A stretch of DNA of 64,000 nt from a virus. The stretch spans positions 4,934-68,933 of IMG/VR virus record IMGVR_UViG_3300042820_000065, one strand, 5' to 3'. The notes under the pieces were generated by a model. That model did no database searches. It was given only the letters and a program-made list of their open reading frames with translations, and had not been told where the DNA came from. Of this stretch, positions 11,783-63,721 are shown piece after piece. How positions within the stretch are numbered: the stretch's first letter is position 1; each line of letters begins with the position of its first letter. The position numbers and the translations under genes are program-made.

Positions 11783-11825
11783 ACGGACAACGTTACCACA
11801 ACTAGTTACGAAGAAGGTGGACGAT

Positions 11826-12833
11826 ATCGCTGAGAGAAGTACGATCACCCAGAGTGTTCAGATCGGCGTGGAATCGGTTCCCGGAACTGCGGTCGCTGCG
11901 AACAAGCGGCTCGGCTCCATGGGTTTCTCGCTCGGCCCGGCGACCGACTTCAACGACCTGCGGCCGATCGGCCAGAAGTACCCGTCGCTTCAGATTCTCG
12001 GCAAGGAGTGGGCGGAGGCTGATCTCGACGGATCGCCGGTCTACACCGAACTGCCGTACGCCTTCGCCTCGGTCGTCAACACTCCGACCATCGTGGAGAT
12101 TCTGGACACGGCGATCCACACCGGTGCGTACCGCTGGACGTTCCAGTCGAACACCTTCGGCGATGACAGTCCGAAAACCTTCACGGTTGAACAGGGTTCG
12201 TCGTTCCGGGCCCATCGGGTGAGTAACTGTATCCTCACCGAGTACGGGATGAAGTGGAGCCGGGACGAGATCGAACTGGACGGCTCATGGCTGGCCAAGG
12301 CGATCGACGACGGCATCACGATGACGGCCAGCCCGACCCAGTTGCCGCAGATCCCGGTGAAGCCAGCCGACCTGTCGGTCTACCTGGATCCCGAGTACGG
12401 CGACATCGGGACCACGAAGATGCTCCGGGCCCTGAAGGGCGAATTTAACATTCAGGACCGGTTCGAGCCCCTGTGGGTGGTCGATGCGGCCCAGCCGTCG
12501 TTCGTCTCCACCGTCGAGGGCGAGCCGACCGTCGAATTCAAGATGACTCAGATGGCCGATGCTCAGGCGATGGCCAACCTGACCGCGATGCGCGGTGGCG
12601 TGACTCTGTTCCTTCGGCTCGAAGGCATCGGGCCGGTCATCTACACCCCCGCTTCGGGCGACCCGATCACCCACTCGGTGAAGATCGACATCGCCGGTCA
12701 GATCTCCGACATCTCCTCATTCGATGACGAGGACGGGGTCTACGCGATCGAGTGGACCTTCGGTGCGGTCCATGACCCGGGATGGGGCAAGGCGTTCAAG
12801 ATCGAGGTCGTTACGACCACGGCAACGCTGTAA
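11826..12833 (+). CDS. Major tail protein (start ATC 11826 or GTG 11817, uncertain)
   Basis: AERSTITQSVQIGVES.PGT N-terminus; located upstream of the chaperone and tape measure genes; followed by a terminator hairpin. Confidence 0.8.
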   Translation: MAERSTITQSVQIGVESVPGTAVAANKRLGSMGFSLGPATDFNDLRPIGQKYPSLQILGKEWAEADLDGSPVYTELPYAFASVVNTPTIVEILDTAIHTGAYRWTFQSNTFGDDSPKTFTVEQGSSFRAHRVSNCILTEYGMKWSRDEIELDGSWLAKAIDDGITMTASPTQLPQIPVKPADLSVYLDPEYGDIGTTKMLRALKGEFNIQDRFEPLWVVDAAQPSFVSTVEGEPTVEFKMTQMADAQAMANLTAMRGGVTLFLRLEGIGPVIYTPASGDPITHSVKIDIAGQISDISSFDDEDGVYAIEWTFGAVHDPGWGKAFKIEVVTTTATL

Positions 12834-28429: not shown

Positions 28430-28711
28430 ATGCCCATGCACGCCGCGACCATACTTGCCAAGACTCCGAATATTGACCTGAACAGCGGCATGGATACCGT
28501 TCGGCTGCTGGCGATTGCAGCGCTTGGTGTCGCCCTGATTGTTGTGTCCGTGGCTGCCGTCTTCACGGCGGGCCGCCGGGGCAACGCGAGCAAGGGCGCA
28601 AGCATCGTCGGGACCGTCGCGCTCTGTCTGATCCCGGCCGGACTCGGCACCGGCATCATCGCCATCGCCTTCGGTCGGGCCCTGATCGGTCTTATCGGCT
28701 TCAGCGCGTGA
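28430..28711 (+). CDS. Small hydrophobic T4SS protein (pilin/VirB2-like position)
   Basis: GAGGGAG RBS; 2-3 TM segments; first gene of the operon leading to VirB4. Confidence 0.5.
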   Translation: MPMHAATILAKTPNIDLNSGMDTVRLLAIAALGVALIVVSVAAVFTAGRRGNASKGASIVGTVALCLIPAGLGTGIIAIAFGRALIGLIGFSA

Positions 28712-29220
28712 GCCTGCGCCAGGTCGCCGATGGGGCTGCGAGGCAGATGAAACGGGTGTGGCTCGGGCCGAAAGGGATGCGTTGGCCGTTCGATGCGACG
28801 TTCGTTCAGTTCGGCGTGGGCGTGCTGTTCGTCGTGGCCTACTTCTTCCTGCTCTGGCTGGTCGTGCCGCCGGTCATTGCGGTCGGGGTGGCCGTGTGGC
28901 AGTTCAGCACCCGGCTGGCCCGCCTCCTCTCGGCCGAACATGAGGTGCGTACTCGGCGTCTCCTGGCCGGTTCCTGCTGGCTCCTGCTGGTCCTCCTGGC
29001 CCCGAACCCGTCCCTCTGGGTGTTCCCCATGCCGTTCTGGCTCGCCGGTCCGGCAGCGGCCATCCTCGGCGTCCTGAGCGTGCGTCAGGTCGGTCGCTTC
29101 ATCGACTGGAACCGGCCGGTCGGGTACTGGCTCGCGATGCCCCGGCGCGTCGCGGCCGGGCCCCGGCTCCGGCCGGAGCGAGAGATCAATCCCGAAGCCC
29201 TGCGACTGGAGGAATCATGA
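28708..29220 (+). CDS. TcpE/VirB3-like conjugation membrane protein
   Basis: W.GP..MRWPF..TFVQFG N-terminus, multiple TMs, immediately upstream of VirB4. Confidence 0.6.
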   Translation: MSLRQVADGAARQMKRVWLGPKGMRWPFDATFVQFGVGVLFVVAYFFLLWLVVPPVIAVGVAVWQFSTRLARLLSAEHEVRTRRLLAGSCWLLLVLLAPNPSLWVFPMPFWLAGPAAAILGVLSVRQVGRFIDWNRPVGYWLAMPRRVAAGPRLRPEREINPEALRLEES

Positions 29221-31781
29221 GGAGAGCGACGCCGAAGCCATTCATGCTCGCGCCGGAAACGAAAGAGATCATCGACAACCTGATGCTGCTGCGGGATGGC
29301 CGGGTGCTGGCCGGTTACCGCATCGGCATCCAGCGCTGGGACTACACCGGAGACGACGAGAAAATCAACCGGATCCAGTCGGCCGCTGACGTTTACGGTG
29401 CCCTGGGTGGCCGCTTCTTCCACGAGCGGGTGACGACCCGCCCGCATCCGGTCCGCGATTGGGCTGCCGCTCTGGACCGGCGCACACCCAACCCTCTACC
29501 TCAGGTCGATGGTTGCGACGAGACCTGGAACCGGCACCTGGCGCGGATGCAGGCCCGCATCGCCTCAACCGGTATGGACGACAAGTTGGTCTTCCGGTAC
29601 TTCAGCGTCGGGACCGTGTCGCCGAAAGCGCACCTGCGGGACGGAACTGACGATGCGGTGATGGCGGCCTGGGTCGAGGAACGACGCCTTTCCGACATCG
29701 TGTCCGGTTGGAACGGACGCCGGATGACCGTTCGGGAGCAGGCGTGGCTGCGAGCCCGCAGCCTGGCCCCCGGAGTGCATCCGGACGCGAAGAACTATGA
29801 CGGACCGTGGCGCGAATCGTCCCTCCCCGCCCTGTCGAATGATGTCCGCTGGAGCGAGGAGCCTTTCGACCGGACCGTTGCGATCCGTGCGTGGCAGGAC
29901 GGGATGCGGCAGGATCGGGCGGTTCAGGTGCTCACGGTCAGCCGCATGGACGACCTGCGCTACCCCGACAGCGGACTGGAGCCGTGGCAGACCTACGCCG
30001 AGCGGGCCGTCGATGCTGACGGTCGCCCGTTCGGTGTCGAGTGGTCGATCGTCGGGTATTTGAAGACCGGCCAGGAGATCAAGGGCGCGGCCGAGATGGA
30101 CCTGCGGAAGGCCATCTACCTGGAACAGGACTACCGCGATCATCAGGAGCCACCGCCCGCATCGATCGAAAAGGGTATCGGCGTAGCGAAATCCACGCGG
30201 GATCAGGTGACCGAAGGCAACGCGACGGTCGCGGGCCGGTTCGTCGGCACGATCAACGTGCTGATCTCGGGCGAGGCTCAGTATCGGGACAGGCGGATGG
30301 TCAAGTCGGCTGCCGACGTCGTCGAGGAACGGTCTGCTGCGTTCGTCCGGCTCTACTCCGGCAACGACCTGCGGATGGAATTCACTGCGGCGCGGCCACA
30401 ATCGACGAAGTTGATCGAGACGATCGTCGGCGAGCCGCACGATCGGTTCTTCAATCAGCAGCAGGTCAGGCTCGATTACCTCGCAGCCGGTCTCCCGTCC
30501 GTCTCTACCGCAGTCGGTGACGGTGCCGGTCCCTACCTCGGCTACACGCGGGGCGCGGCCCGGCGGCCGTTCATGCACGACAGCCATTACGCCACGGAAG
30601 GGCGCGGAAACCTGGGGCGTGGCAACAACATGTGGCTCATTGCCGGAGCGCTCGGGTCCGGCAAGACGATGCTCGCGGGTAGCATTATCTACCAGGCGGC
30701 CCGGCGGAACGAGCGGTGTATCTTCTCCGACCCGTCCGGCCCGATGGCGAAACTGTGCAGCCTGCCGGAACTCGCTCCCCATTCGCAGGTGATCGACCTG
30801 TTGCAGGGTGACGACGGAATTCTCAACGTTCCCAGTCTCATTCGCGAGCCATGGGCCACGGAGTACGACAAGGAAGGGGAATGGGGCCGGGCCGTCGACC
30901 GGGCCAAGGCCGAGCGCCGTGACCTCGTCGTCGACATCGCCCGCCGGTGTCTCGATTCGGATCAGTATGCCGACCCGACGACGCTCGCCGTCCTGAGGGA
31001 GGCGGCCAGGAGAGTGGACTGGTACGCCACGAAGTCGCTCTGGGATCTGGTCGACCAACTGAACCTGGACGAGTCGCCTGCGGCGCGCGCGGTGGCCGCC
31101 TCCCTGGCCGACGCTTCTCAGGCCCCGTTCCTGCGACTGCTGTTCCCTCCACGCGGCCGGATCGGTACGGCGCAACAGTTCTCAGTGATGGACAAGCGGT
31201 TCACGGTCATCTGCACGCCCGGTATCACCCGCGCTCCCGATGGCGTGCCCCGCTCGGACTGGACCGACAAGGAGAAGGGCGCGGACGCGATCCTGCGGCT
31301 GGTGGCCCTGTTCACGGACCGGCTGATCTATACCAAGCCCCGTGACGAGCGGTGCGTTGTGATCTTCGACGAGGCCGAGAGCCTGACCGATTTCGGCCCC
31401 GGCCGGGGCTTCCTGTCCCGGCTTGGCCGCGACCATAGCAAGTGGAACACGGCCGTCTATCTGTGCGTGAAATCCATTAGCGAGCAGATGCTTTCGGGGG
31501 AGTTGAGGAACTTCCTGGCCGGTGCCTGGGTCGGGCGGATGGCGAATATCGATGCCGCTACGGACATGCTGAACGTGCTGAACGTCGCGGATCGCAAGCA
31601 TGCCCGCTCGCTGATGCGGCTGTCCGAGTCGGCCCCCGGCGAGTTCGTGCATCTGGATGCCGACGGCAACGTCGGTGGCGTCCGGATCGATCTCGACTAC
31701 CATCCCCGACTGAAGGCCGCACTCCTGACCAATCCGATGCCCGATGGTGTCGACGGCTGGAACACGGAGGTGACGGTGTGA
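29217..31781 (+). CDS. virB4: VirB4-family conjugation ATPase (TcpF/ConE-like)
   Basis: 854 aa. Walker A AGALGSGKT, FSDPSG, Walker B VVIFDEAE, GRDHSKWN..V...SI and C-terminal LDADGNVG.V.ID match the Gram-positive VirB4 layout. Confidence 0.88.
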   Translation: MRRATPKPFMLAPETKEIIDNLMLLRDGRVLAGYRIGIQRWDYTGDDEKINRIQSAADVYGALGGRFFHERVTTRPHPVRDWAAALDRRTPNPLPQVDGCDETWNRHLARMQARIASTGMDDKLVFRYFSVGTVSPKAHLRDGTDDAVMAAWVEERRLSDIVSGWNGRRMTVREQAWLRARSLAPGVHPDAKNYDGPWRESSLPALSNDVRWSEEPFDRTVAIRAWQDGMRQDRAVQVLTVSRMDDLRYPDSGLEPWQTYAERAVDADGRPFGVEWSIVGYLKTGQEIKGAAEMDLRKAIYLEQDYRDHQEPPPASIEKGIGVAKSTRDQVTEGNATVAGRFVGTINVLISGEAQYRDRRMVKSAADVVEERSAAFVRLYSGNDLRMEFTAARPQSTKLIETIVGEPHDRFFNQQQVRLDYLAAGLPSVSTAVGDGAGPYLGYTRGAARRPFMHDSHYATEGRGNLGRGNNMWLIAGALGSGKTMLAGSIIYQAARRNERCIFSDPSGPMAKLCSLPELAPHSQVIDLLQGDDGILNVPSLIREPWATEYDKEGEWGRAVDRAKAERRDLVVDIARRCLDSDQYADPTTLAVLREAARRVDWYATKSLWDLVDQLNLDESPAARAVAASLADASQAPFLRLLFPPRGRIGTAQQFSVMDKRFTVICTPGITRAPDGVPRSDWTDKEKGADAILRLVALFTDRLIYTKPRDERCVVIFDEAESLTDFGPGRGFLSRLGRDHSKWNTAVYLCVKSISEQMLSGELRNFLAGAWVGRMANIDAATDMLNVLNVADRKHARSLMRLSESAPGEFVHLDADGNVGGVRIDLDYHPRLKAALLTNPMPDGVDGWNTEVTV

Positions 31782-33613
31782 GGCGCATCCGGATCGTCAT
31801 TCTCGCAGCCCTGGCTGCCGTCCTACTGCTCGCCTTCACCGCCCCGTCGGCGAAGGCCGTCGGCATTCCTGGGATCGACCTGTGTCCGAAGACGGCTCCG
31901 TTCGCAGCCTTGCCGAACGAGGGCCTGATCGGTGTGGTCGGTGAACAGCCGCAGCAGATCAGCAGTTTCAGCACATCGACCATCTGGTCAAATGGTGGAT
32001 TCGCCGGAATGTATACCACCCCATACGATCTCGGGTGCGCAGCGAACCCGGCGTCGTATCTGAAGTTGGGGTCGGCGAAAGCCAATGCGGCCACGACGAA
32101 CGCGATCCTCGGCGTCGGCTACATGGCCACGTCCGTCACGGACTCGATCGACCGACGGGCCTGGGCCCCGCAATGGATCGGTGCCTTCCTGGGCGACTTC
32201 ACGAGCCGAGCGACCGACGTCATCAGCACGAAGATCATCTATCCATTGCTCGGACTGGGCCTGATCGTCTCGTCCTGCTACATGCTGATCCGTTTCCGGG
32301 GCGGCAACGTGGCCGGAGCATCGTCTGCCGTCGGGTGGGTCTTCATCGTCCTGGCCCTCACCGCATTCGTCATCATCAGCCCCGTCTTCATCTCCTCCAG
32401 TACGCAGCGGGCCGGTGATATCGCGGTCTCGACTCTGAATGGTGGTGATAATGCATCGGATTCAACGACCGATCGAATCGTTGAGGCCGTCCACTATCAG
32501 GGCTGGCTACGCCGTACGTTCGGAACTGCCGATTCGCCGGTCGCGAAGAAGTATGGCCCGAGCCTGCTCGCGTCGGAACGTATCTCCTGGGCCGAACTCG
32601 CCTCGAACAACGATCCGGACGAGATCAAGGCATTGCGGACCGAAAAGGCCAAGCAGTTCAAGGAAATCGCTGCCAACGTCAAGGATGAGGATCCGGGCGC
32701 GTACCGCTGGCTGACCGGCGAGGCGGACGGTTCCGGCATCGCCCTGACGGAAACCCTGTACGCGCTGACGGCGTCGTTCTTCCGGTTCGCCGTCGACCTC
32801 CTGCTCGTCATGGCCACCATCCTGATCGCCATCCTCTGCCTGGTCTGGCTGGCCGGATCGCCCTACTTCGTGACCCCGTTCGGTCGGATAACCGCTGTCG
32901 GGGTACTGAATTCGACGGTCCGGTCGGTCGTCTACGTGCTTGAGGCGGCCGTCGGGTCCTGGCTGTTCGGGATCTACATGCAGGTCTCGATGCAGCCCGG
33001 CCAGAGTACCTGGTGGTCAATCCTGCTCCTGTTCGTCGGGACGCTGACGGCATGGACACTGATCCGGCCGGACCGGAAGATGCTCGCGCTGGCCACGATG
33101 GGCCATGTTCGCGGCCACGGCCGGATCGTCCGGCTCCTGACGACGATGGCGATGGCTTACCTCGGCGGTCGTACGGCAGGACGGGCTGCGGCCCGGCAGT
33201 TCCAGGAGGAGGAGGTCGACATCACGCCCGGCCGCAGCGAGGACTACGTCGCTGCTCCGCTGGGCCAGCCGGTCCACGTCCGGGTCCGGCCGGTCATGGC
33301 CGACGAGCGGGGCATCGACTCTCCGGCGGCTCCGGCGGGCGTGGTCGAGGGCGAGGTCATCTGGGACTCGGCGGACATGCCGACCCTGCCGAGCGGCGAC
33401 GTCTATCAGCGACCGCTCGCGCCGGACGGGCCGATGCCGACGCCTCCTCCGGCCGGTTCGCTCGGCGAGGTCGAGGTCTATCAGCGACCCACGCCGGTTC
33501 ACGAGGATGATCAGTACGTAACATGCCCTTGGTGCCACGGCAACGGCTGCGGCCATTGCGAATATGATGGCGTCATACCGAAATGGGTGCGGGATCAGGT
33601 GAGTCCGGAATGA
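31778..33613 (+). CDS. VirB6/TcpH-like polytopic membrane protein
   Basis: Signal-like N-terminus, about 7 TM segments, Pro-rich cytoplasmic tail; follows VirB4. Confidence 0.7.
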   Translation: MRRIRIVILAALAAVLLLAFTAPSAKAVGIPGIDLCPKTAPFAALPNEGLIGVVGEQPQQISSFSTSTIWSNGGFAGMYTTPYDLGCAANPASYLKLGSAKANAATTNAILGVGYMATSVTDSIDRRAWAPQWIGAFLGDFTSRATDVISTKIIYPLLGLGLIVSSCYMLIRFRGGNVAGASSAVGWVFIVLALTAFVIISPVFISSSTQRAGDIAVSTLNGGDNASDSTTDRIVEAVHYQGWLRRTFGTADSPVAKKYGPSLLASERISWAELASNNDPDEIKALRTEKAKQFKEIAANVKDEDPGAYRWLTGEADGSGIALTETLYALTASFFRFAVDLLLVMATILIAILCLVWLAGSPYFVTPFGRITAVGVLNSTVRSVVYVLEAAVGSWLFGIYMQVSMQPGQSTWWSILLLFVGTLTAWTLIRPDRKMLALATMGHVRGHGRIVRLLTTMAMAYLGGRTAGRAAARQFQEEEVDITPGRSEDYVAAPLGQPVHVRVRPVMADERGIDSPAAPAGVVEGEVIWDSADMPTLPSGDVYQRPLAPDGPMPTPPPAGSLGEVEVYQRPTPVHEDDQYVTCPWCHGNGCGHCEYDGVIPKWVRDQVSPE

Positions 33614-34122
33614 GAAAACTGGTCAATTGGATCTTCTACTCGAAAGAGAATCTGACCCTGGCCTTCGTTACCATGATCACCGTCATGGCCGTGGCCTTCC
33701 TGGTGTTCGTCCTGATCCAGATCCCGAAAGGTGGAGGGGCCGGTTCGCCCGTTTATCCGACCGCGACCGCCCGGCCCATCCACACCGAACTCATCCCGCC
33801 GACGACGGAGGCCCTGCCGACGATCACGAAGTCGTACGGCCCGTCCCAGCCGATCGCGCTGGAGGCCGCAGACGCCTTCCTCTCGCACGATCTGATCCGG
33901 TTCGGACGGGTGGCTCTGCCTGCTGCCGTTGAGGCCGTCAGCGACGCGCCAGAGCCTCCCGCTGCCGCCCGGGACGTGACCGGCCCGGTCGTCGTCCGCC
34001 AGGGCGGCACGACGCAGCAGACGGACGAGATCCCGACGTCCGGAGGCATGCTTCAACTGGTCATGGTGATCTCCGGCGGCCGGTGGCAGGTCAGCATGAT
34101 CCGATACGCCCCGCTGACCTGA
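33610..34122 (+). CDS. VirB8/TcpC-like bitopic protein
   Basis: Single TM, Pro/Thr linker, then an NTF2-like domain ending L.MV..GGRWQV. Confidence 0.5.
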   Translation: MRKLVNWIFYSKENLTLAFVTMITVMAVAFLVFVLIQIPKGGGAGSPVYPTATARPIHTELIPPTTEALPTITKSYGPSQPIALEAADAFLSHDLIRFGRVALPAAVEAVSDAPEPPAAARDVTGPVVVRQGGTTQQTDEIPTSGGMLQLVMVISGGRWQVSMIRYAPLT

Positions 34123-34166
34123 GCGGATAGACTGGGAAGCCCAGACCAAAAGACAGGGTGGACCCA

Positions 34167-34694
34167 ATGGCAATCGTGGCAGCGGACATCGTAAAGCGTT
34201 TCAGCGTATCGGCGGCGGCCGGTGACACGACGGCCGGAACAGCGGCCACGTCACTCGGCGACCAGATCTCAACGACCGCAATCACCGACGCGACGCTGAA
34301 CAACCTCTTCGACGACGTGTCCGGCGCGGAAGCGGCTGCCGGGATGGTCGACTACCGGTGCATCTTCGTTCTGAACAACCACGCCACGCTGACGCTGACC
34401 GGCGCGAGCATCACGATCCTGAGCCAAACCGCGCTCGGTGGCCTGATTGACATCGCGCTCGACAACATCGCCATCTCGGCGAAGGCCAGCGCATCGGCCC
34501 AGGCCGCAGCGATCGGAGCCGAAACCACCACGCCAACGGGTATCGGGGCGTTCGGGGCTGGCCCGCTGGCCATCGGTGATATCGCACCCGGTCAGGTGAA
34601 GGGCGTCTGGCTCCGCCGGACCGTGACCGCTGGCGCTGCCGCTCTGAACCCCGACGGCGTGATCCTGCGCATCTCCGGCGACACCCTCCCGTAA
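34167..34694 (+). CDS. Virion-type structural protein (gene 1 of fibre-like cassette B)
   Basis: MAIVAADIVKRFS..SLG.QIS..NNLFDDVSG.E..AG.VDYRC is a common phage hypothetical pattern. Confidence 0.55.
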   Translation: MAIVAADIVKRFSVSAAAGDTTAGTAATSLGDQISTTAITDATLNNLFDDVSGAEAAAGMVDYRCIFVLNNHATLTLTGASITILSQTALGGLIDIALDNIAISAKASASAQAAAIGAETTTPTGIGAFGAGPLAIGDIAPGQVKGVWLRRTVTAGAAALNPDGVILRISGDTLP

Positions 34695-34704
34695 GGGCTG
34701 ATCA

Positions 34705-36270
34705 GTGACGGCTCTGAGCAACACATTTGAGGGAGGCACGTCCGGAACCAACATCACGGTCGGGAACTCCGGCGGTGGTTCCGGCGACGCCTTCAGCGCG
34801 GTGTCGGTCGATGCCGCGTCGACCTGTGCGTTCGATACGTCACGAGCCGGTCATGGCCTTCAATCGCTGAAGATCGTCGGGTCGAGCAACACCGACTATG
34901 TAGCATGGACGATCTCGGGAAGTGCGGCTTATTTCCGCTGGACGTTCAGCGCTGATGCGGCACCGGCGTCGAACTCAAACATCTTCCGAATCCTCAACGG
35001 TACGACCATTATGGCCACCGTCAGGATCAACTCGACCGGGAAACTGGCGTTCCTCTACTCGTCTGGAACGCTCGGAGCAACCACCACGAACTCGGTCAAT
35101 CTGAACGGGACGTTCTTCCGGATCGAGATGTCCATCGACGCATCGGCCGGAAACATCACCCTCTACCTGTTCAACTCGCAGGATAGCAGCACGCCGACGG
35201 AAACCATCTCGGTCACGAGCAAGGCCCTGGGTGCAACGACGATGACGTCGGCCCGGCTCGGCTTCGTCGCGAACAACACATGGACGTGCTGGCTCGACGA
35301 TTTCGCCTACTCCGACGTCGGTTTGATCGGCCCCGTCTCATCCGGAACGGTCGTTACCTCCGACCTGGATCTCAGATGGCCGGTCCGTTCCATCGCGACG
35401 TCAGACCTGGATCTCCGCTGGCCGGTCCGTTCCATCGCGACGTCAGACCTGGATCTCCGCTGGCCGGTCCGTTCCATCGCGACGTCAGACCTGGATCTCA
35501 GATGGGCCGTCCGATCGGCGATCACATCGGACCTCGATACACGCTGGGCCGTCCGATCGGCGATCACATCGGACCTCGATACACGCTGGGCCGTGCGGTC
35601 TTCCGTCGTCTCGGACCTCGATACACGCTGGATCGTCAGGGCACTCCTGGCCTCGGACCTGGATCTCAGATGGGCCGTTCGGCATCTGGTCACTTCAGAT
35701 CTCGACCTTCGCTGGTCGGTTCACTCTGCCGTCACTTCAGATCTCGACGTCCGCTGGGCCGTGCGCTCGATCGTCGCGTCCGACCTTGACCTGCGCTGGG
35801 CCGTTGATGCTTCGGTCGGTGTCGTCAATTCCGATCTGAATCTCCAATGGGCGCAGCGGAACTCGGTCACATTCGACTCAGACCTACGATGGTCGGTGCG
35901 GGCCGCTATCGCGTCCGATCTGAATCTGTGCTGGGCCGTTCGGTCTTCCGTCGGTTCGGATCTCGACGTCCGCTGGCTAGTGACCGGTTCGGTCGTCAGT
36001 GACGCCGACCTGCGGTGGTCCGTCCGTTCGGTAGTCGTATCCGACGCCGATCTGCGGTGGTCGATTCGGTCCGTCCTGACATCCGATGCCGATCTTCGCT
36101 GGGCCATCAGGTCTTTCGTGCTATCGGAGTTGGATCTCCGCTGGCGTGTCCTGAACGATGGGCAGCGGAACGTCACCCTGGCCGCTCTCCTGGCCGATCA
36201 GCCTTTCACTTCTGCCGTCCTGGCGAGTCGGCCAGGACGGACTGCCACGTTAGGAGCCCAGAATGGCTAG
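34705..36270 (+). CDS. Fibre/adhesin-like protein: lectin-like N-domain + 19 x 14-aa repeats (gene 2 of cassette B)
   Basis: NTFEGG..W.DD beta-sandwich, then (T/V/A)SDLDLRWxVRSxx repeats. Confidence 0.7.
   Translation: MTALSNTFEGGTSGTNITVGNSGGGSGDAFSAVSVDAASTCAFDTSRAGHGLQSLKIVGSSNTDYVAWTISGSAAYFRWTFSADAAPASNSNIFRILNGTTIMATVRINSTGKLAFLYSSGTLGATTTNSVNLNGTFFRIEMSIDASAGNITLYLFNSQDSSTPTETISVTSKALGATTMTSARLGFVANNTWTCWLDDFAYSDVGLIGPVSSGTVVTSDLDLRWPVRSIATSDLDLRWPVRSIATSDLDLRWPVRSIATSDLDLRWAVRSAITSDLDTRWAVRSAITSDLDTRWAVRSSVVSDLDTRWIVRALLASDLDLRWAVRHLVTSDLDLRWSVHSAVTSDLDVRWAVRSIVASDLDLRWAVDASVGVVNSDLNLQWAQRNSVTFDSDLRWSVRAAIASDLNLCWAVRSSVGSDLDVRWLVTGSVVSDADLRWSVRSVVVSDADLRWSIRSVLTSDADLRWAIRSFVLSELDLRWRVLNDGQRNVTLAALLADQPFTSAVLASRPGRTATLGAQNG
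35356..36162 (+). repeat. Tandem 42-bp coding repeat, 19 units
   Basis: Units counted from the translation. The first units are near-identical DNA (tcagacctggatctccgctggccggtccgttccatcgcgacg). Confidence 0.93.
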
Positions 36271-36559
36271 TACGCTGACGCAATGGAGCCTTGCGGCCGA
36301 GACGAAAGAGTGGGTCGGCCCGATCACGGTGCTGGTCGATGACGATCCGGTGACTGGGTTCGAGATCGCCCTGACCGAGCCCGGAGCGCGGCCGACGACT
36401 TGGTCCAGCCCGACCGCCCTCGATGAAGGTCAGGGAGCCCTGGTCGGTGTCGGAACATCCTTCCCACTGGTACCGTTCAAGATATATACCCTCTGGGTCA
36501 GGTACACCGACAGCCCAGAGGTTCCGGTGCAGAAATGCGGAGAGATCAAGGTCTACTAG
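36263..36559 (+). CDS. Small beta-rich protein (gene 3 of cassette B)
   Basis: 98 aa; Y.LWVRYTDSPEVPV C-terminus, BppU-like. Confidence 0.5.
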   Translation: MASTLTQWSLAAETKEWVGPITVLVDDDPVTGFEIALTEPGARPTTWSSPTALDEGQGALVGVGTSFPLVPFKIYTLWVRYTDSPEVPVQKCGEIKVY

Positions 36560-36562
36560 CCC

Positions 36563-37450
36563 ATGAAGCCAGTCATCGCAGCGGTTATCGCCGCGCCGGT
36601 GGCTGGCCTTGCCGCCATCAGTCTCTCCCTGAGCCTGGTGACCGGCGGAGTCCCGAGTTTCAATGGGGGCGCCGTCGCTGCGCTGACGCATACGACATGC
36701 TCTGTCGGCGCCGGTCCTATGGATGGGCAGAAGGTCGCCGCTCTTGCCTATGCCGCAGGCTGGCGTGGCGAAGACCTATCGATCGCGGTGGCCATCGCAC
36801 GGGCTGAATCGAACTGGAGCGCTACGGCCAGGAACCTCAACGCCGACGGATCCACGGACTTCGGCCTGTTTCAGATCAACAGCGTGCATGCGTCGATCCT
36901 GGCCGGAGGCGACTGGGCCGATCCGGCTGCGAATGCCGTGATGGCACACCAGGTCTGGCTTGAAGCGGGAGGCTCGTTCTCCCCATGGGTCACGTTCTGG
37001 GACGGCACGTACCGACGCTACCTGGTCGACGTCACGACGTCCTGTACTGCAACGGATCCCGGAGCCGGTCCGCAGGGTGCTGACGGGCTGCGGCCCCGGG
37101 CGGAGAATGTGAAAGGGCTGGCCACGAGCCGCTGGGGAATCACGGACGTCGGCGGCTACTCATACCGTGTCATCGCTGGGACCGGCGTGCTGTCCGATCA
37201 CGCTGCCGGTCGAGCCGTCGACATCATGCTCGGGACGGACTACCAGTCCGCCGCGAAACGAGTCGAGGGCTACGACATCTCGCGATTCTTCGCAGAGAAT
37301 GCCGCAGCCCTCGGAGTGAAGTACGTGATCTACTACGACCAGATCAACACCGGGTCAGGTTGGCGTCCGTACCATCATCCGGGATGTGCCAACCCGTGCC
37401 GCGATCCGAACCTGGAACACCAGAACCACGTTCATGTGTCGGTGAAGTAG
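36563..37450 (+). CDS. Lytic transglycosylase with C-terminal peptidase-like domain (VirB1/CwlT role)
   Basis: N-terminal TM, AIARAES..DFGLFQIN (SLT), then SDHAAGRAVD..HQNHVHVS. Confidence 0.82.
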   Translation: MKPVIAAVIAAPVAGLAAISLSLSLVTGGVPSFNGGAVAALTHTTCSVGAGPMDGQKVAALAYAAGWRGEDLSIAVAIARAESNWSATARNLNADGSTDFGLFQINSVHASILAGGDWADPAANAVMAHQVWLEAGGSFSPWVTFWDGTYRRYLVDVTTSCTATDPGAGPQGADGLRPRAENVKGLATSRWGITDVGGYSYRVIAGTGVLSDHAAGRAVDIMLGTDYQSAAKRVEGYDISRFFAENAAALGVKYVIYYDQINTGSGWRPYHHPGCANPCRDPNLEHQNHVHVSVK

Positions 37451-45570: not shown

Positions 45571-45655
45571 ATGGGCGAAGACGAAGCCCTACGAGAGATC
45601 GTCGGGAAGATCTCGTTCCGCAACTGAATCATTCCTCGGACAGGAAGAGGTCCCC

Positions 45656-45988
45656 ATGGGAACCAAGACCGCTGGCGAGCGCTCGCACCTCACGATCGTC
45701 AACTCCGACCCGGCCAACATTCTGACCGGCGTCTCCATCCAACTCGCCATCGTCTCCGAGGCGCAGCGTCGCCCGCACCTGATGGACGGGATCTCGACGG
45801 TCCAGTGGAATCGTGACAACGGCGTGTCCGTCCTGGTGAACGACGCCGGGATCCGGCAGCACCTCGCGAACGCGCTGGGTTTCGAGCCGAAGGTCGAAGA
45901 GTACGGCATCCGGGAACTCGGAACCGGGTTCGCCCGGACCGGTGAGATGGCCGGTGTGCCGGTCATGATCTGGAACGTGGAAGCGTAA
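45656..45988 (+). CDS. Hypothetical protein
   Basis: GGAAGAGG RBS. Confidence 0.55.
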   Translation: MGTKTAGERSHLTIVNSDPANILTGVSIQLAIVSEAQRRPHLMDGISTVQWNRDNGVSVLVNDAGIRQHLANALGFEPKVEEYGIRELGTGFARTGEMAGVPVMIWNVEA

Positions 45989-49144: not shown

Positions 49145-50155
49145 TCACTTCATCACCAGGACCCTGGTGTCCGAAACGAGTTTCCGCGTCTCGGACTGAC
49201 TCTGGACGAACACGGTGTAGAGCGGGTTGTCGGTCGGCGACATCGTGATGCCTTCGCGATCCGGCAGGCCGATCAGGTGGCGCGCGTCCTGGCCACCGAA
49301 GACCTTGCCGGTCGCCTTCTCCTCGATCATGACGGCCTTCTTCCAGCCGATCGTTTCGCGCTTCGTCAACTGGTAGAACGACTTTCCCCGGCTGAACGAC
49401 CCGACGTACCGCGTCACAAACGGAGCGATCACTTCGCCAACCTGACCGACCCTCAGGTCGTGGTAAGCCTTCTTCGGGATCGGAACGAGCGCGGCTGCCG
49501 CAACGGTCTGCGGGTTCAGCGCGTCCAGGCCGGTCGAGAAGAGGGTGCGGGTGCCGCGAACGCCCGTGGCCCGCATGGTCATGAAGTTGTCGGTGGCGCG
49601 CTGGATCACCGACCCGACGTGAGCCACGCCAGCGCTCGACTTCGCGTCCCAGATCTCGCAGTTGTCGGCCGGAAAGCCGTACTGCCGGGCCTTGTCCAGA
49701 CTCCGGTGATCTGGCACGAGGGTCGCGAGGGTGAAGTTGTCCGGCTGCGTAGCGAGTAGGACAACGAGATCTTTAGGGTCGTTGTCCCGCGACGCGTTCT
49801 CCAGCCCATCCGTCACGACGAAGGTCAGGAAGGCATGATCCCCGTACATGGTTGCGGTTCTCGCCAGATCCTCCTGACTCTGGACCGTCGCGTCAATCAG
49901 CGCGGTCATGTCGCCGATGCTGTACAGGTTCGCGATCGACGGCAGGCGCAGGACGTCCTTGTCGAAGATCACGCATCGAACGTCCTTGTCGAACGTGTAG
50001 ACGCTGACTCGAACCTCGCGGTCGAGATCCTTGGAACGTCGCGCCAGGTATTCGATCTGGCCATCGACGACCTTGATCACGTCACGCTTGTGGCCGGACA
50101 TCGAGCCGGACGCGTCCATGACGATGGCGATGTGGTCGATCTGGTTTTGGATCAT
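49145..50155 (-). CDS. von Willebrand factor A domain protein
   Basis: MIDAS DASGSM, TALIDA, VVTDGLEN; GAGAGG RBS. Confidence 0.85.
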   Translation of the reverse strand: MIQNQIDHIAIVMDASGSMSGHKRDVIKVVDGQIEYLARRSKDLDREVRVSVYTFDKDVRCVIFDKDVLRLPSIANLYSIGDMTALIDATVQSQEDLARTATMYGDHAFLTFVVTDGLENASRDNDPKDLVVLLATQPDNFTLATLVPDHRSLDKARQYGFPADNCEIWDAKSSAGVAHVGSVIQRATDNFMTMRATGVRGTRTLFSTGLDALNPQTVAAAALVPIPKKAYHDLRVGQVGEVIAPFVTRYVGSFSRGKSFYQLTKRETIGWKKAVMIEEKATGKVFGGQDARHLIGLPDREGITMSPTDNPLYTVFVQSQSETRKLVSDTRVLVMK

Positions 50156-50865
50156 TTCACCTCTCCCGGGCAGGTCTTGGCGTGCTGAAAGATCTTCCAT
50201 GGTGGAGTGATCCATTCGTGGCAGCCTGGGCGCCTCATCGCTTCGTCCCCTTGCAGACCCCGGCATGGATCGCCTTCGGAATCGCTCCGTTGGTGATGTC
50301 CTTGCCGCACGAAGGACACTTCACCTTCGCCGGAGGATACGGATCGCCCTTACGTCGCCCCGGACTGTCCTGGCTGTGCTTGCCCATCGTAAACTCCTAT
50401 TGCTTCGGTGGTTTCGGTCCCTTGTGGCCTGTGAGCGCGTGATGAATGCCCCACGCGAGAGCCTGTTTCGGCAGATTGAACTTGCGCCCACATGAACACT
50501 TGAAGATCATTTGTAGAATCCCCTCTTTTTGTCGTGCTTCATGTTGCCCTTCAGGTACTTCAGCCATTTCGGATAGCAAATGGCGGCCCGCGCCGCCATT
50601 TTCGCCATGTTGGCAGTCTTGTACTTGTTGCAGGGCAGGCACGTGACCTCGGGTAGGGCCGTCAGCGCGTCCAATCCTTCCCGTTCCGCAACTTCTCGTT
50701 GTACTTTCGGCCGTTCTCGTTCGATCGGTGCTGATGCTCGGCCTTGATCTTCTTCTTCGGGCTGGCCCAGCGGGACACTTTCGGACCCATCTGCGGGCGA
50801 GCACCCTTGTTGATGAAAAACCCCACGTCGACCTCCTAGATCAGGAGCAGATCCCCGCCTGCTCT

Positions 50866-50901
50866 GTGACCATCATACACCAAACGACTCGTGGTTTACA
50901 A
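50866..50901 (-). promoter_or_regulatory. Conserved phage promoter
   Basis: TTGTAA-N18-TATGAT-GGTCAC. Confidence 0.75.
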
Positions 50902-51376
50902 CTCTCGGACCGCCCGCGTTCGTCGGAGTCGATCGGCGTGACGCACGAACCGATTCGATGATGTTCTGGATCATCCCGACGTGAGCGGCCAGGCGATCGA
51001 CGACGTCGGCCGGACTGTAGCCGTCATAATGCGGAGCCGCGTCCATGGTTTCGCAATGATCGAACATTTCCCAGTAGGCGGCCTCGATGTGGTAGGAGAT
51101 CGGACCACCGGCCGTGTTCATGCCGACGATGAACATGCCATCGAACATCGATCCGTCTTCGTGCGCCTTGGAGCGCCACGTCCGCTGCGCCGACAGGGCC
51201 GTCACGACGGCGAACAGGACGGCACGGTGTTGGTACAATTCATCGAACGTGTGGTGGCCGTCGGACACCTTGCCACTGTCGATCGGGCCGACGCTGTAGG
51301 TGTCCAGAATCCGACTCAGACCGATGCGCAGGTCGTCCTGCGTCGACTCGACCGGAAAGTTAATGCTGTCGCTCAT
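50873..51376 (-). CDS. Conserved phage hypothetical protein
   Basis: SDGHHTFDELY.HR..LF..W.SK.H.DGSMFDG.FIVG..ISYH pattern. Confidence 0.7.
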   Translation of the reverse strand: MSDSINFPVESTQDDLRIGLSRILDTYSVGPIDSGKVSDGHHTFDELYQHRAVLFAVVTALSAQRTWRSKAHEDGSMFDGMFIVGMNTAGGPISYHIEAAYWEMFDHCETMDAAPHYDGYSPADVVDRLAAHVGMIQNIIESVRASRRSTPTNAGGPRVVNHESFGV

Positions 51377-51591
51377 GATTTCCCCTCAATGACGCGGATG
51401 AGGCCGTCCCGTGATCCGTACGTCCGGACCGCTTCGATGCCGCGCTGACTACATCCGGGATGCCGCCCGCACGTCTTGGTGTGACGGCTGAAATGCTTCT
51501 GGTAGATGCGGATTGCCCAGATCGTTACGGCGCGCGGCGGAACGATACCGAGGCGCGCCAGGATCGGAATGACGCTGAACGGCTTCGCCAT
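51373..51591 (-). CDS. YidD-like membrane protein insertion efficiency factor
   Basis: IRIYQKHFS..TCGRHPGCS..GIEAVRTYG..G fits the YidD pattern IR.YQ..IS..C...P.CS...EA...G..G. Confidence 0.6.
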   Translation of the reverse strand: MAKPFSVIPILARLGIVPPRAVTIWAIRIYQKHFSRHTKTCGRHPGCSQRGIEAVRTYGSRDGLIRVIEGKS

Positions 51592-51620
51592 GAAACAGTC
51601 GCCCTGCTGCTGATCTCCCA

Positions 51621-53204
51621 TTACGGCATGCCCAATCTGTGTAGTAGTGCCCAGTCCTGCTCGGTGTTCTCGCCTTCGGCGTCGGTAGGATCGGGCACGA
51701 AAAATCCCTGATCCTCTGCGTATCCGCCCTCGTTCATCTGATAAGTGAAGCGTCCCTTCAGTTCCAGCGGGATGTCACGGCCGACGGTCGCCTTGCCGTA
51801 CAGCATCATCGCCGCGTCCCGACTGAGCGGGCCGACGCTGATCCGGCCGGGGCAGTTGTCGCGGGCGTCGCCGCCGAACCATTTCGCGTCCGGCCGCTGC
51901 GTCCCGATGATGATGTGGATCCACAACTTTCGCGCCATCGCCAGGAGCGTAGCGATGGATTCGATTGGCTCGATGGGGCTGGAGATCGTCTTGCGCTTGT
52001 TCGTCCGGATGGAGTAGCGGCCCATCCGCTTCACGTACTCGCGGTACTCGTCGATGATGACGATCCACGGCGTGAACTCAGTGACCTTCGCGCCCTCATG
52101 CTCCACGGCCCGCTGCCGTCGTTCCATCTCTCGCTCGATCTCCATGGGCATGCCGTACATCTGATCGTCTTCGGTCAGAACGGCCTTGATGCCCGGCCAG
52201 CCACGAAAACCGATTAGTTCCACGCGTTTTGGATCGAAAAGGATGAGTTCGATCTCGCCCTTGGCGGCAGCGTCGGCGCAAGCAATGATCATGCTCCGGA
52301 AGATCGACGTTTTACCGGCCAGGGTGGCACCGATGACGAGCACGTGCGGCGCGACCTTCAGGTTGACGATGGTCGAGGGTCCGATCGGCAGGAGATGCCA
52401 CGGCTTGCCCGGCGCGATGCCAGGGTGGTCGATCCGGGCGGGAAGTTCGGGCCTCTTCTCGGTGTAGAACCAGTCCTCCTGCTCGTTCCAGTCGCAACGC
52501 CACCGGCCGCCCATCTTGGCCGAGATGCGTTCCTGCACCTTCAGTTTCGCGTTGTCGTCCCGGTCGGCGAAGTCGGTGCTCCGATAGGTGACCTTGAATC
52601 CGAGACGACCAGCGCCATCGGTCGGCGTGCCGGTCGGGTAGACCTTGACGTATCCCTTGTCGCCCATCTCGGCTCGGACCGCAGCAGCGATGCGCTGGGC
52701 CGGGGTCTCGCCGGTCGGCTTCACCACCTCCGGGGTGTCGTCCTGGCCGAAAGAGGCGTGGGCCAACCCATAGGCCAGGTAGAGAGCGAGCAGCACGACG
52801 TTCCACCACATCGTCACCTGATGCAGAAGGTGCAGCGCCGGAGCGATCGGCCTGCCCTGGGCCTGAAGATAGGTGAGGTAGAGCAGGTATCCGCCCGCAC
52901 TCGCGGTCAGCGCCGGGATGATGACGCGGATGGGGTTACGGTTAGCCCTCCTCCGCGCGGTAGCGCGGGCACCGGCCTCTTCTGCGGACTTTTCCTTATG
53001 GCAGGACGGCCCGGATTTCGGGTAGCAGAGGGGCTGAAGGTTCTCCGGCTCATGCCCGCCGCCCCGGTGCTCCGGGAGAATGTGGTCGACCTGCACCTCG
53101 TCCCGTGGGAAGAGGGACTGGCAGTGCGCACATTTCACGCGATCCCCGACGGCGTGCGCGTCGAGGATCTGCATCCGGAGCGACCGGGGCAGCGGGCTGC
53201 TCAT
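51621..53204 (-). CDS. HNH - 2TM - FtsK/SpoIIIE ATPase fusion (candidate coupling protein/DNA translocase)
   Basis: CAHC..VDHILP..GG..ENLQPLC..CH; two TMs; PHVLVIGATLAGKT, DPKRVE, IIDEY, ARK..IHII.GTQRP. Confidence 0.88.
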   Translation of the reverse strand: MSSPLPRSLRMQILDAHAVGDRVKCAHCQSLFPRDEVQVDHILPEHRGGGHEPENLQPLCYPKSGPSCHKEKSAEEAGARATARRRANRNPIRVIIPALTASAGGYLLYLTYLQAQGRPIAPALHLLHQVTMWWNVVLLALYLAYGLAHASFGQDDTPEVVKPTGETPAQRIAAAVRAEMGDKGYVKVYPTGTPTDGAGRLGFKVTYRSTDFADRDDNAKLKVQERISAKMGGRWRCDWNEQEDWFYTEKRPELPARIDHPGIAPGKPWHLLPIGPSTIVNLKVAPHVLVIGATLAGKTSIFRSMIIACADAAAKGEIELILFDPKRVELIGFRGWPGIKAVLTEDDQMYGMPMEIEREMERRQRAVEHEGAKVTEFTPWIVIIDEYREYVKRMGRYSIRTNKRKTISSPIEPIESIATLLAMARKLWIHIIIGTQRPDAKWFGGDARDNCPGRISVGPLSRDAAMMLYGKATVGRDIPLELKGRFTYQMNEGGYAEDQGFFVPDPTDAEGENTEQDWALLHRLGMP

Positions 53205-53207
53205 GAA

Positions 53208-53678
53208 CTAGTCGAGTCCCCCGCCGAACATGGGCTCGATCTCGATCCACTGCCCCTTGAACGTGGCCCACGCCCGGCTGAGATGGCGGACGATCTCAGA
53301 ATCGAGGTTGTCCGTCTGGACCTCGATCAGGGCTCGGGCCAGCAAGGTCGTGGCCGAGAAGAAAGTACCCTGCGGACCCTTGATCGCTACCTTCCGGTCG
53401 AGTTGCTTCGGCTCGCCCGCGACAATCCGGGGCTCGCTGGAGTGGAAGATGAGGTCGTTCATCTCCTCCGCCAGCATGATGGCGGAGGAGTGCGTCATCT
53501 CCTCACCGGCGGCCTCGCTCGCTTGGGCGACGAGATCGATGCTGGCGGTGAGGCAGATCCACTCCGCTTCGGTCGCCGTGAGCGTGATCTCCTTCTCGTC
53601 CTCGCCGAGAATGCGCATCGTCATTTCGACTGGGACGGCGAGCATCATCCGGTCCTGGCTGGTCATCTCTTCCATCAC
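53208..53678 (-). CDS. Hypothetical protein
   Basis: GGAG RBS; in the operon with the FtsK gene. Confidence 0.55.
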   Translation of the reverse strand: MMEEMTSQDRMMLAVPVEMTMRILGEDEKEITLTATEAEWICLTASIDLVAQASEAAGEEMTHSSAIMLAEEMNDLIFHSSEPRIVAGEPKQLDRKVAIKGPQGTFFSATTLLARALIEVQTDNLDSEIVRHLSRAWATFKGQWIEIEPMFGGGLD

Positions 53679-54122
53679 TCAGTTCTCCTTGCTCGCAGGG
53701 GTGACCATGGCCTGCTCGGCGAAAGTCTTGATAGCCGAGCGCATTACGGCCTCGCCGTGCTTGACGTTGTCAGGCATCGGTCCGGCCGCATCCATCTCGG
53801 ACGCGAAGGCAGCCAGCGAGACGGCCCCGGCGACGAGCGCGGCGGCCGTGATGGGGACGGTGGTGGTCGAGGTCATGTCGGCCGCGTCCTGAAACAGGGG
53901 CGGATCGGCCTGGGTCAGCAGGGACTCGGCGATCTCGATGCCGTACTTGATGCCGCAGGCGGCCCCGAGCCGATCGAGCGGATTGGTGCTGTTCTCCAGT
54001 ATCTCGCAGAGCCGGGTGTGAGCAGTGAGCAGTGCGGACCACTCTTCGTTCGTGGCCTTGACCTCGACCACGGCCTTGTGATCGACGTCGATAGACTTCA
54101 GCAGCAGGTCGGCCTGGTCCAT
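53679..54122 (-). CDS. Hypothetical protein
   Basis: GGGAG RBS; first gene after the leftward promoter. Confidence 0.55.
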   Translation of the reverse strand: MDQADLLLKSIDVDHKAVVEVKATNEEWSALLTAHTRLCEILENSTNPLDRLGAACGIKYGIEIAESLLTQADPPLFQDAADMTSTTTVPITAAALVAGAVSLAAFASEMDAAGPMPDNVKHGEAVMRSAIKTFAEQAMVTPASKEN

Positions 54123-54156
54123 GTGAACTCCCGTTCGTGGGGGACGTCTTCGGTGT

Positions 54157-54192
54157 GAGACCATCATGCACCAGTTGTAGAAGAGGTGTCAA
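54157..54192 (-). promoter_or_regulatory. Conserved phage promoter for the FtsK operon
   Basis: TTGACA-N18-CATGAT-GGTCTC. Confidence 0.8.
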
Positions 54193-63602: not shown

Positions 63603-63721
63603 GGCAGTTCCAAGATCATGTGCGCGTTGTTCCCGCTTCTTCCCTACTTTCGTAATGTTGCTTGCACGAAGAGATAGTTCGGGTTCATCGGAAACATCGC
63701 GTACACGATCTTGGAACTGCC
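63603..63721. repeat. Inverted-repeat element B (homologue of element A)
   Basis: 33-bp arms (63603-35 / 63689-721, 4 mismatches) around a 53-bp AT-richer core. Confidence 0.88.

Follow-up and report, generated by a model that had tools for sequence, protein, structure and literature searches.

The stretch of DNA analysed here, hereafter the window, comprises 64,000 nucleotides (bases 4934-68933) of the IMG/VR virus record IMGVR_UViG_3300042820_000065, a genome of 76,061 bp with a completeness estimate of 98% that originates from soil metagenomes. On the minus strand of the window, at positions 51621-53204, lies the gene of a protein here called HNH-FtsK, in which a predicted HNH nuclease, a hydrophobic two-helix hairpin and an FtsK/TcpA-type ATPase follow one another. 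The genome also harbours a module similar to type IV secretion systems (T4SS), of which HNH-FtsK may be the coupling ATPase. The features discussed are listed with their coordinates in Table 1.

The genome displays the hallmarks of a tailed phage, namely a terminase large subunit, an SPP1-type portal, a scaffold and a major capsid protein, and further encodes a 1550-residue tape-measure-like protein, endolysin-type genes and a primase-polymerase (Prim-Pol)/D5 primase-helicase. The major capsid protein shares 65% identity with its counterparts in Arthrobacter phages, Eileen and Judy among them, and from this kinship the host is judged to be an actinobacterium. A megablast search of plasmids and phages with 15 kb around the HNH-FtsK gene gave no match. 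In this genome (G000) and three related IMG/VR genomes (G001-G003), the four genomes used for the relaxase and integrase searches, no tyrosine integrase (PF00589) was found, serine recombinases and partition genes being outside this search; the phage group may be virulent, or maintained without integration.

Domain architecture of HNH-FtsK

The N-terminal domain matched the Pfam profile PF01844 at residues 25-74 (E 4e-9; score 36.8 bits, cut-off 21.4), and HNH_5 was likewise above its cut-off. The signature residues comprise a Cys4 zinc finger (C25/C28/C60/C68), the catalytic pair D40-H41, N55 and H69, with the motifs C25xxC28 and C68-H69. Among 23 aligned family members D40, H41, N55, H69, C28 and C60 were invariant, and C25 and C68 were conserved in at least 90%. 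An AlphaFold2 (AF2) model, based on 23 homologues and with a mean predicted local distance difference test score (pLDDT) of 88.5, shows the beta-beta-alpha fold with strands at residues 37-41 and 56-60 and a helix at residues 68-87. By predicted fold and by residues, the domain is an HNH endonuclease of the beta-beta-alpha-metal type. The nearest PDB profile matches were ZRANB3, Cas9 and a Geobacter HNH, and the IscB model in NCBIfam matched weakly. The HNH domains of ZRANB3 and Cas9/IscB are of the same zinc-finger beta-beta-alpha-metal type, but the motors and the biology are unrelated and the likeness is an analogy of design only. In enzymes of these types a motor or a guide brings the HNH to cut one strand.

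The hairpin that follows consists of two long helices in the model and is a probable two-helix transmembrane (TM) anchor. Its hydropathy is moderate here (1.44 and 1.42, 19-residue Kyte-Doolittle) and reaches up to 2.4-2.7 at the same position in relatives. A K/R-rich stretch with five K/R residues (RATARRRANR) precedes the first helix, and because of this stretch, of the need of the motor for ATP and of the even number of membrane passes, both the HNH domain and the motor should be cytoplasmic.

The alignment with plasmid and metagenomic relatives begins at approximately residue 155-220. Among the 23 family members, invariant residues of this region include R234, W239 and H260-P261-G262. The motor itself matched PF01580 (FtsK_SpoIIIE) at residues 277-377 (E 4e-14; score 53 bits, cut-off 24), and the PHROG FtsK/SpoIIIE-like profile covered residues 278-506. 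Its motifs Walker A (G292-x4-G297-K298-T299) and Walker B (D385-E386) are invariant, and T435-Q-R-P-D439 is invariant or nearly so. Sequence profiles of PDB entries over residues 273-507 gave FtsK at 3e-20, in two stretches, and TcpA at 4e-17 over the whole motor. The top Foldseek match of the model was TcpA (6o1x, E 6e-17), followed by the FtsK motors 6t8o and 2ius (E 1e-13 to 1e-15) and then by EccC/EssC; the TM-score to FtsK motor chains, normalised by the target, was about 0.6. No Pfam match was obtained for the C-terminal gamma/winged helix-turn-helix (wHTH) domain (PF09397) or for PF13491, and the protein stops some 20 residues past the motor. The Pfam and NCBIfam scans also found no relaxase domain in the protein.

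The start at M1 is favoured over M11 by the family-conserved N-terminus MSSPLP, by the position of M1 3 nt past the stop of the second upstream gene and by a GGGGGA 12 nt upstream. One database copy of the protein begins at M11.

A first-pass annotation, made from the letters of the window, had described this protein as an HNH motif, two helices and an FtsK domain, with both domains placed in the cytoplasm by the TM hairpin. The architecture was borne out by Pfam, PHROG, AF2 and the 23-member alignment, and the topology holds on the grounds given above.

Distribution of the fusion and linkage to a T4SS-like module

A search of 5.8 billion proteins retrieved approximately 24 clusters with the same architecture (36-72% identity), all of them metagenomic and several located on contigs of 74-78 kb. 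With an exhaustive HMMER search, 162 clusters (50% identity level) were found at E < 1e-30. An iterated hidden Markov model (HMM) of the HNH part detected an HNH or a divergent HNH-like N-terminus also in many proteins of 600-975 residues, and some of the longer relatives have an extra zinc ribbon ahead of the HNH.

The tree of 177 motor domains (FastTree) falls into two halves, a split with a FastTree support of 99 and an SH-aLRT of 90 in a subsample of 79 sequences (IQ-TREE, LG+C20). In the phage-associated half, to which HNH-FtsK belongs, 68 of 84 rows have an HNH or HNH-like N-terminus, and of the 16 rows that lack it, 8 are at most 540 residues long and probably truncated. The sister half contains all three plasmid reference proteins, and no HNH or HNH-like N-terminus was found in its 93 rows. 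The fusion family thus counts at least 68 clusters at 50% identity, and on the 79-sequence subsample approximately four gains or losses suffice for the HNH label. No plasmid in PLSDB (72,556) and no isolated phage (50,697 genomes) covered the HNH part of these proteins. Because the HNH is confined to one half of the tree, with few label changes and no copy in plasmids or isolated phages, the fusion is, as judged from tree and databases, old, stable and specific to one clade. In species-representative genomes only two FtsK-domain relatives were found, both HNH-less (an Intrasporangium metagenome-assembled genome and Microlunatus), and no prophage copy of HNH-FtsK was detected among them.

This distribution bears on the idea of a selfish or vestigial HNH, acquired by capture of a homing endonuclease and without a role for the motor. 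HNH homing endonucleases are common in phages and another HNH open reading frame (ORF) lies antisense in the tail region of this genome, but homing endonucleases are normally free-standing or located in introns or inteins. The fusion, in contrast, is old, with motors at most 30% identical, the HNH always stands N-terminal before the hairpin with its catalytic and zinc ligands invariant, and only about four label changes are seen on the tree. We consider a purely selfish HNH highly improbable.

The T4SS-like module (28430-37450) comes after the tail, lysis and Prim-Pol genes and lies 14.2 kb from the HNH-FtsK gene, in agreement with the first-pass annotation, which had placed a T4SS about 15 kb away. 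It consists of a core with two small TM proteins, a VirB4-like ATPase, a polytopic and a bitopic membrane protein, and it ends with a TM-anchored lytic transglycosylase. The ATPase matched the NCBIfam model of TcpF, the VirB4 of pCW3. The module is unusual for a phage; among the 50,697 isolated phage genomes the VirB4-like ATPase matched two records only, with a Tn916-type 'conjugative transposon protein'. As predicted from the profiles, the phage carries the same ATPase pair, TcpF-like plus TcpA-like, as the Tcp conjugation system.

In this genome only, the core is interrupted by a cassette of three genes (34158-36559; 178, 521 and 98 residues). The SLT hydrolase directly follows the core in G001-G003, and homologues of the cassette are found elsewhere in G002 (30541-32619).

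The three additional IMG/VR genomes with the fusion, G001 (69.5 kb), G002 (60.9 kb) and G003 (80.7 kb), are syntenic tailed phages. In each of them the module is contiguous, with the 170-residue protein, the VirB4-like ATPase, the 611-residue protein, the 179-residue protein (unmatched in G001) and the SLT hydrolase. VirB4-like homologues were also found on contigs equal in length to four more HNH-FtsK contigs (75515, 74612, 74468 and 41006 bp). In all 8 cases open to testing, a VirB4-like ATPase accordingly accompanies the fusion gene on its genome or contig, those on the latter four contigs being deduced from equal length in bp, and the co-occurrence with VirB4 proposed earlier was found throughout the testable set.

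The linkage extends to distant members. On contig L019, which carries tail genes as well, an HNH-FtsK of 753 residues adjoins an AAA_10 protein (829 residues), a 670-residue protein and an NlpC/P60 hydrolase, and on L020 a 975-residue version adjoins the same gene set. On L048 (1-21995 of a JGI contig of 140,409 bp) an HNH-less FtsK protein of the phage clade is located beside a module of AAA_10, a 776-residue protein, an M23 peptidase and DUF2637. In these three contigs the FtsK gene directly follows the module, an arrangement also seen in the conjugative plasmids of actinobacteria. A 7-deazaguanine gene set (QueC, QueF, PTPS, radical SAM and GTP cyclohydrolase I) is found nearby on L048, which suggests a large phage whose DNA is modified and which has a module of this type.

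Among annotated proteins, HNH-FtsK is most closely related to FtsK proteins of plasmids from actinobacteria (Brevibacterium pAP13, Clavibacter pCSL1, Cutibacterium, Microbacterium, Rhodococcus and a Streptomyces plasmid), which in PLSDB are 30-36% identical over residues ~200-524. Their operons have a similar order of small TM proteins, an ATPase of ~860 residues, a membrane protein of ~660-700 residues, a hydrolase and FtsK; the FtsK-domain gene closes the VirB4-like operon in pAP13 and pCSL1 and is encoded together with such an operon in the Streptomyces plasmid. The plasmid FtsK proteins differ in having ~690-700 residues, another N-terminus and no HNH, and the phage proteins form their sister clade. 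As to the ATPases themselves, a profile of the phage VirB4-like proteins finds the pAP13 ATPase collinearly (E 3.5e-7), whereas phmmer and BLAST with a single phage protein found nothing in the pAP13 ATPase at E < 0.01.

The composition of the module might also fit a system for protein export, or for egress and lysis, in which the FtsK-like ATPase would be a substrate receptor as in EssC/EccC and the HNH would be regulatory or anchor DNA. The motor matches EccC/EssC ATPases too, and the module, placed after the tail and lysis genes, has a cell-wall hydrolase as its last gene. The matches to the EccC/EssC models in NCBIfam are far below their cut-offs, however, and HNH-FtsK has one ATPase domain where EccC/EssC have three in tandem behind an FHA/DUF N-terminus. 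The best matches, TcpA and FtsK, both handle DNA, the intact and invariant nuclease site indicates a DNA substrate, and neither components of a type VII secretion system (T7SS) nor WXG-like genes were seen. An export or egress function is thus very unlikely.

Relaxase searches and a possible role in DNA transfer

The first-pass annotation had found no relaxase motif in the window, and this result now extends to the whole 76-kb genome and its three relatives: six-frame searches of G000-G003 for TrwC (PF08751), MobA_MobL (PF03389), Relaxase (PF03432), Rep_trans (PF02486) and Mob_Pre (PF01076) returned none of the five families, even at E = 1. Actinobacterial relaxases are mostly of the MOBF class and in a few cases MOBQ (Bordeleau et al. 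2012, PMC3429521), and both classes were covered by the search. Conserved genes of unknown function gave 'exonuclease' or no match against PHROGs, and in G001-G003 the fused HNH is the sole Pfam-significant HNH.

The closest structural parallel to the phage motor is TcpA of pCW3 (Clostridium perfringens; PDB 6o1w/6o1x), which with the Orf21-type protein of Tn916 shares an N-terminal anchor, a single FtsK-like motor and the lack of a gamma domain, although identity to TcpA in the structural alignment is only 17-19% and the relation to TcpA, TraB and EccC is drawn from profile and fold scores only. As in the Tcp system, the phage protein is paired with a TcpF/VirB4-like ATPase, a polytopic membrane protein and a wall hydrolase. 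Unlike TcpA, it has an N-terminal HNH, it is encoded by a tailed phage, and no relaxase was found in its element. The elements pCW3 and Tn916 each encode their own relaxase-type proteins. The chromosome translocases FtsK/SpoIIIE, by contrast, have a gamma domain reading KOPS/SRS and a 4-TM N-terminal domain, both of which are missing here.

We tentatively favour the reading that HNH-FtsK is the coupling or translocase ATPase of a plasmid-derived DNA-transfer module of the Gram-positive type (TcpF/VirB4 plus TcpA/FtsK), stably maintained in tailed actinophages of ~60-80 kb. This role is suggested by the TcpA-type motor, the kinship to proteins of plasmid operons, the VirB4-like linkage and the plasmid gene order in distant relatives. 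The first-pass annotation had gone further and proposed that the HNH could cut the substrate pumped by FtsK and so replace a relaxase; of this, the coupling role is likely in view of the TcpA fold match and the linkage, while the substitution of the relaxase is only plausible.

Several observations count against this role or against the part of the HNH in it. In this genome 14 kb separate the gene from the module, the two are on opposite strands and the gene belongs to an operon of unrelated small genes; on contig L018 no VirB4-like gene was present within 10 kb. The hairpin is weakly hydrophobic in this particular protein. A few members of the HNH-FtsK clade stand beside the same module without an HNH, as on L048, and MOB-suite types 118 of 175 actinobacterial plasmids with a related HNH-less FtsK as lacking a relaxase ('non-mobilizable'). 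Since most of the related plasmids are thus without both a recognisable relaxase and an HNH, there is no obvious need for the HNH in machines of this class. HNH nucleases are hydrolytic and form no covalent 5'-phosphotyrosyl adduct, by which a relaxase is recognised and pulled through the T4SS; the HNH can therefore not be the pilot protein, and for want of the covalent link the chemistry of transfer would have to be new. What a phage without a detected integrase would gain from conjugation is also not obvious.

The plasmid typing further shows that a recognisable relaxase is often absent in this class of systems, so that its absence alone is weak evidence. The PLSDB matches include NC_010408 (pCSL1) and NZ_CP050694. 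Despite such typing, the two plasmids inspected, pCSL1 and that of Streptomyces sp. 891-h, carry VirB4-like/FtsK conjugation operons, and current typing tools seem to capture systems of this class poorly.

With the coupling role as the starting point, the following mechanism may be depicted. The two-helix hairpin would hold the protein in the cytoplasmic membrane, where the FtsK-type motor presumably assembles into a ring. The motor would feed DNA to an envelope channel made up of the VirB4-like ATPase, the polytopic and bitopic proteins and the anchored transglycosylase, outward being the presumed direction. The N-terminal HNH, positioned beside the motor, could nick or cut the DNA and so give the pump a free end; such a cut would correspond to the DNA-processing step of the relaxase in ordinary conjugation, minus the covalent pilot protein. 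Cutting of a single strand would suit an entry point, and six copies on a hexamer could make a double-strand break. The cargo would likely be the phage DNA or a part of it, which would reach a neighbouring cell from an infected one with no virion involved.

An HNH in place of a relaxase is accordingly a plausible suggestion from domain content and gene linkage. In its widest form the proposal is that this actinophage lineage moves its DNA, or the segment between two inverted-repeat elements described below, from cell to cell through a T4SS-like channel, by an HNH-initiated, relaxase-independent and pilot-free process that would constitute a second, virion-free route of infection. This we regard as doubtful.

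The placement of the gene brings up another function, that of a membrane-bound translocase-nuclease for exclusion or host takeover, which would reel in the DNA of superinfecting phages, of plasmids or of the nucleoid for destruction by the HNH, independently of the VirB4-like module. The gene is indeed part of a small-gene operon away from the module and has a promoter-like site of its own, PHROGs places phage FtsK-like proteins in 'moron / host takeover', and motor-plus-HNH combinations recur in DNA-targeting enzymes such as ZRANB3, one of the PDB matches. The motor also matches FtsK-like defence components (mad8 and SspH) in PADLOC, but these matches are confined to the generic ATPase core. 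Such a function leaves the strict VirB4-like co-occurrence and the plasmid-order adjacency unexplained, and the nearest annotated relatives are conjugation-operon proteins; it seems unlikely.

The absence of a relaxase also calls to mind TraB of Streptomyces plasmids and actinomycete integrative and conjugative elements (AICEs). Like HNH-FtsK, TraB is an FtsK-like motor that is anchored in the membrane and encoded by a mobile element of actinobacteria. TraB recognises 8-bp clt/TRS repeats by a C-terminal wHTH, is the sole transfer protein and works without a T4SS. HNH-FtsK could likewise be a stand-alone pump of double-stranded DNA to neighbouring cells or compartments, with an HNH that opens circular or concatemeric DNA and a VirB4-like module in a separate role. 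A single FtsK-type motor with a membrane anchor and a host that is actinobacterial by capsid kinship agree with this, and TraB-type transfer requires no relaxase (Bordeleau et al. 2012, PMC3429521). Against it, the phage protein has no C-terminal gamma/wHTH for clt/TRS recognition and its linkage to VirB4-like genes is conserved. The query matches four Streptomyces plasmids only, and the one inspected has an operon with a VirB4-like ATP-binding protein and not the classical TraB setting; moreover, the isolated phages with the most similar capsids have Arthrobacter as their host, a non-mycelial genus. A TraB-like pump is decidedly unlikely.

If the favoured reading with its HNH-initiated transfer were true, it would challenge the views that T4SS conjugation always starts with a relaxase bound covalently to single-stranded DNA and that tailed phages spread only by virions, and it could bear on how FtsK-type conjugation pumps reach closed DNA. 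In the literature, no paper on an HNH-FtsK protein of the coupling type or on a VirB4/TcpF-type module in a tailed actinophage was found, nothing relevant emerged on VirB4 encoded by siphoviruses, and for Streptomyces phages FtsK-like genes are merely recorded as present. Even if the transfer idea fails, there remain a sizeable protein family and a soil actinophage group whose conjugation-like module is undescribed in cultured phages.

Inverted-repeat elements, other HNH genes and neighbouring genes

Table 1. Features of the window discussed in the text, with positions in the window.
Feature	Position	Strand	Evidence and remarks
HNH / two-helix hairpin / FtsK-TcpA-like ATPase gene (HNH-FtsK), 527 residues	51621-53204	-	Open ORF and translation; Pfam; AF2
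Predicted HNH nuclease domain, residues 1-85	52950-53204	-	PF01844; zinc-ligand conservation; AF2 fold
Hydrophobic helical hairpin, residues 91-149	52758-52934	-	AF2 helices 91-115 and 121-149
Small alpha/beta domain, residues 165-255	52440-52712	-	AF2 secondary structure (168-250); present in plasmid homologues too
Predicted FtsK/TcpA-type RecA-like motor, residues 270-527	51624-52397	-	PF01580; PDB profiles; Foldseek; invariant columns
T4SS-like core (93- and 170-residue small TM proteins, VirB4-like ATPase, 611-residue polytopic, 179-residue bitopic protein)	28430-34122	+	Pfam; NCBIfam; TM counts
TcpF/VirB4-like ATPase, 854 residues	29217-31781	+	AAA_10 E 1e-18; NCBIfam TcpF E 2.7e-16, residues 413-830
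TM-anchored lytic transglycosylase, end of module	36563-37450	+	SLT_3/SLT Pfam; N-terminal TM helix
Element A, 19-nt arms, 49-nt loop	25834-25920		Alignment; DNA fold z -5.8; just upstream of Prim-Pol/D5 gene
Element B, homologue of A in direct orientation	63603-63721		Alignment; DNA fold z -6.0; 15-nt exact outer arms, exact-match loop 89 nt
Two upstream genes (162 residues, one TM helix; 156 residues, acidic)	53208-54167	-	Same leftward operon
Promoter-like site (TTGACA, 18-nt spacer, CATGAT)	54163-54192	-	Consensus scan 10/12; consensus match only; at the head of the leftward operon
YidD-like gene, 82 residues, membrane-protein insertion (efficiency) factor family	51373-51621	-	PF01809 E 6e-8
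Small HNH gene, 119 residues	61263-61622	-	PHROG HNH endonuclease E 2e-9; conserved in all four related genomes near right end
HNH-containing ORF	11090-11848	-	PF01844 E 6e-8; antisense within tail-gene region; this genome only

The two inverted-repeat elements A and B noticed earlier in the window proved real by both alignment and DNA folding. Counterparts were found at the same gene positions in G003 (45617-45705 and 9538-9624) and in G002 (52038-52130), one upstream of the Prim-Pol gene and one beside the homologue of the gene at 63788-64066; element A has its counterpart in G003, element B in both genomes. The arm word differs in the counterparts (TGTCACAGGTGTCACAG), meaning that the position is conserved and the arm sequences have been replaced. 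The elements are candidate cis sites, an origin of replication being at least as likely as an origin of transfer, and any link to the HNH is speculative.

Two other HNH genes are found in the window. The small one near its right end is possibly a packaging-associated HNH, distinct from the one fused to FtsK, and the antisense one among the tail genes looks like a homing endonuclease insertion. An identity of HNH-FtsK itself as the packaging HNH was rejected on account of its membrane anchor, its distance from the terminase and the separate small, conserved HNH gene.

Upstream of HNH-FtsK, the 162- and 156-residue genes gave no Pfam or PHROG match and no BLAST counterpart in G001-G003, and the second of them ends 3 nt ahead of the HNH-FtsK start. 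Downstream, the ATG of the YidD-like gene overlaps the HNH-FtsK stop (TAATG), an arrangement of translational coupling; a YidD-like gene is unusual for a phage and is absent from the relatives. Contigs from a soil metatranscriptome library span positions 52821-54145 without mismatch, a stretch that takes in the two upstream genes and the 5' part of HNH-FtsK with its HNH. This coverage in an RNA library is compatible with transcription from the promoter-like site at 54192 on the minus strand, but the contigs may also stem from carry-over of DNA.

Further downstream on the same strand is the gene of a WDGH-domain protein (50873-51376; PF25311, E 1e-35). It is followed by the gene of a 373-residue protein similar to von Willebrand factor A (vWA) domains (49145-50266, minus strand; PHROG 26613), which is conserved in G002, G003 and L005.

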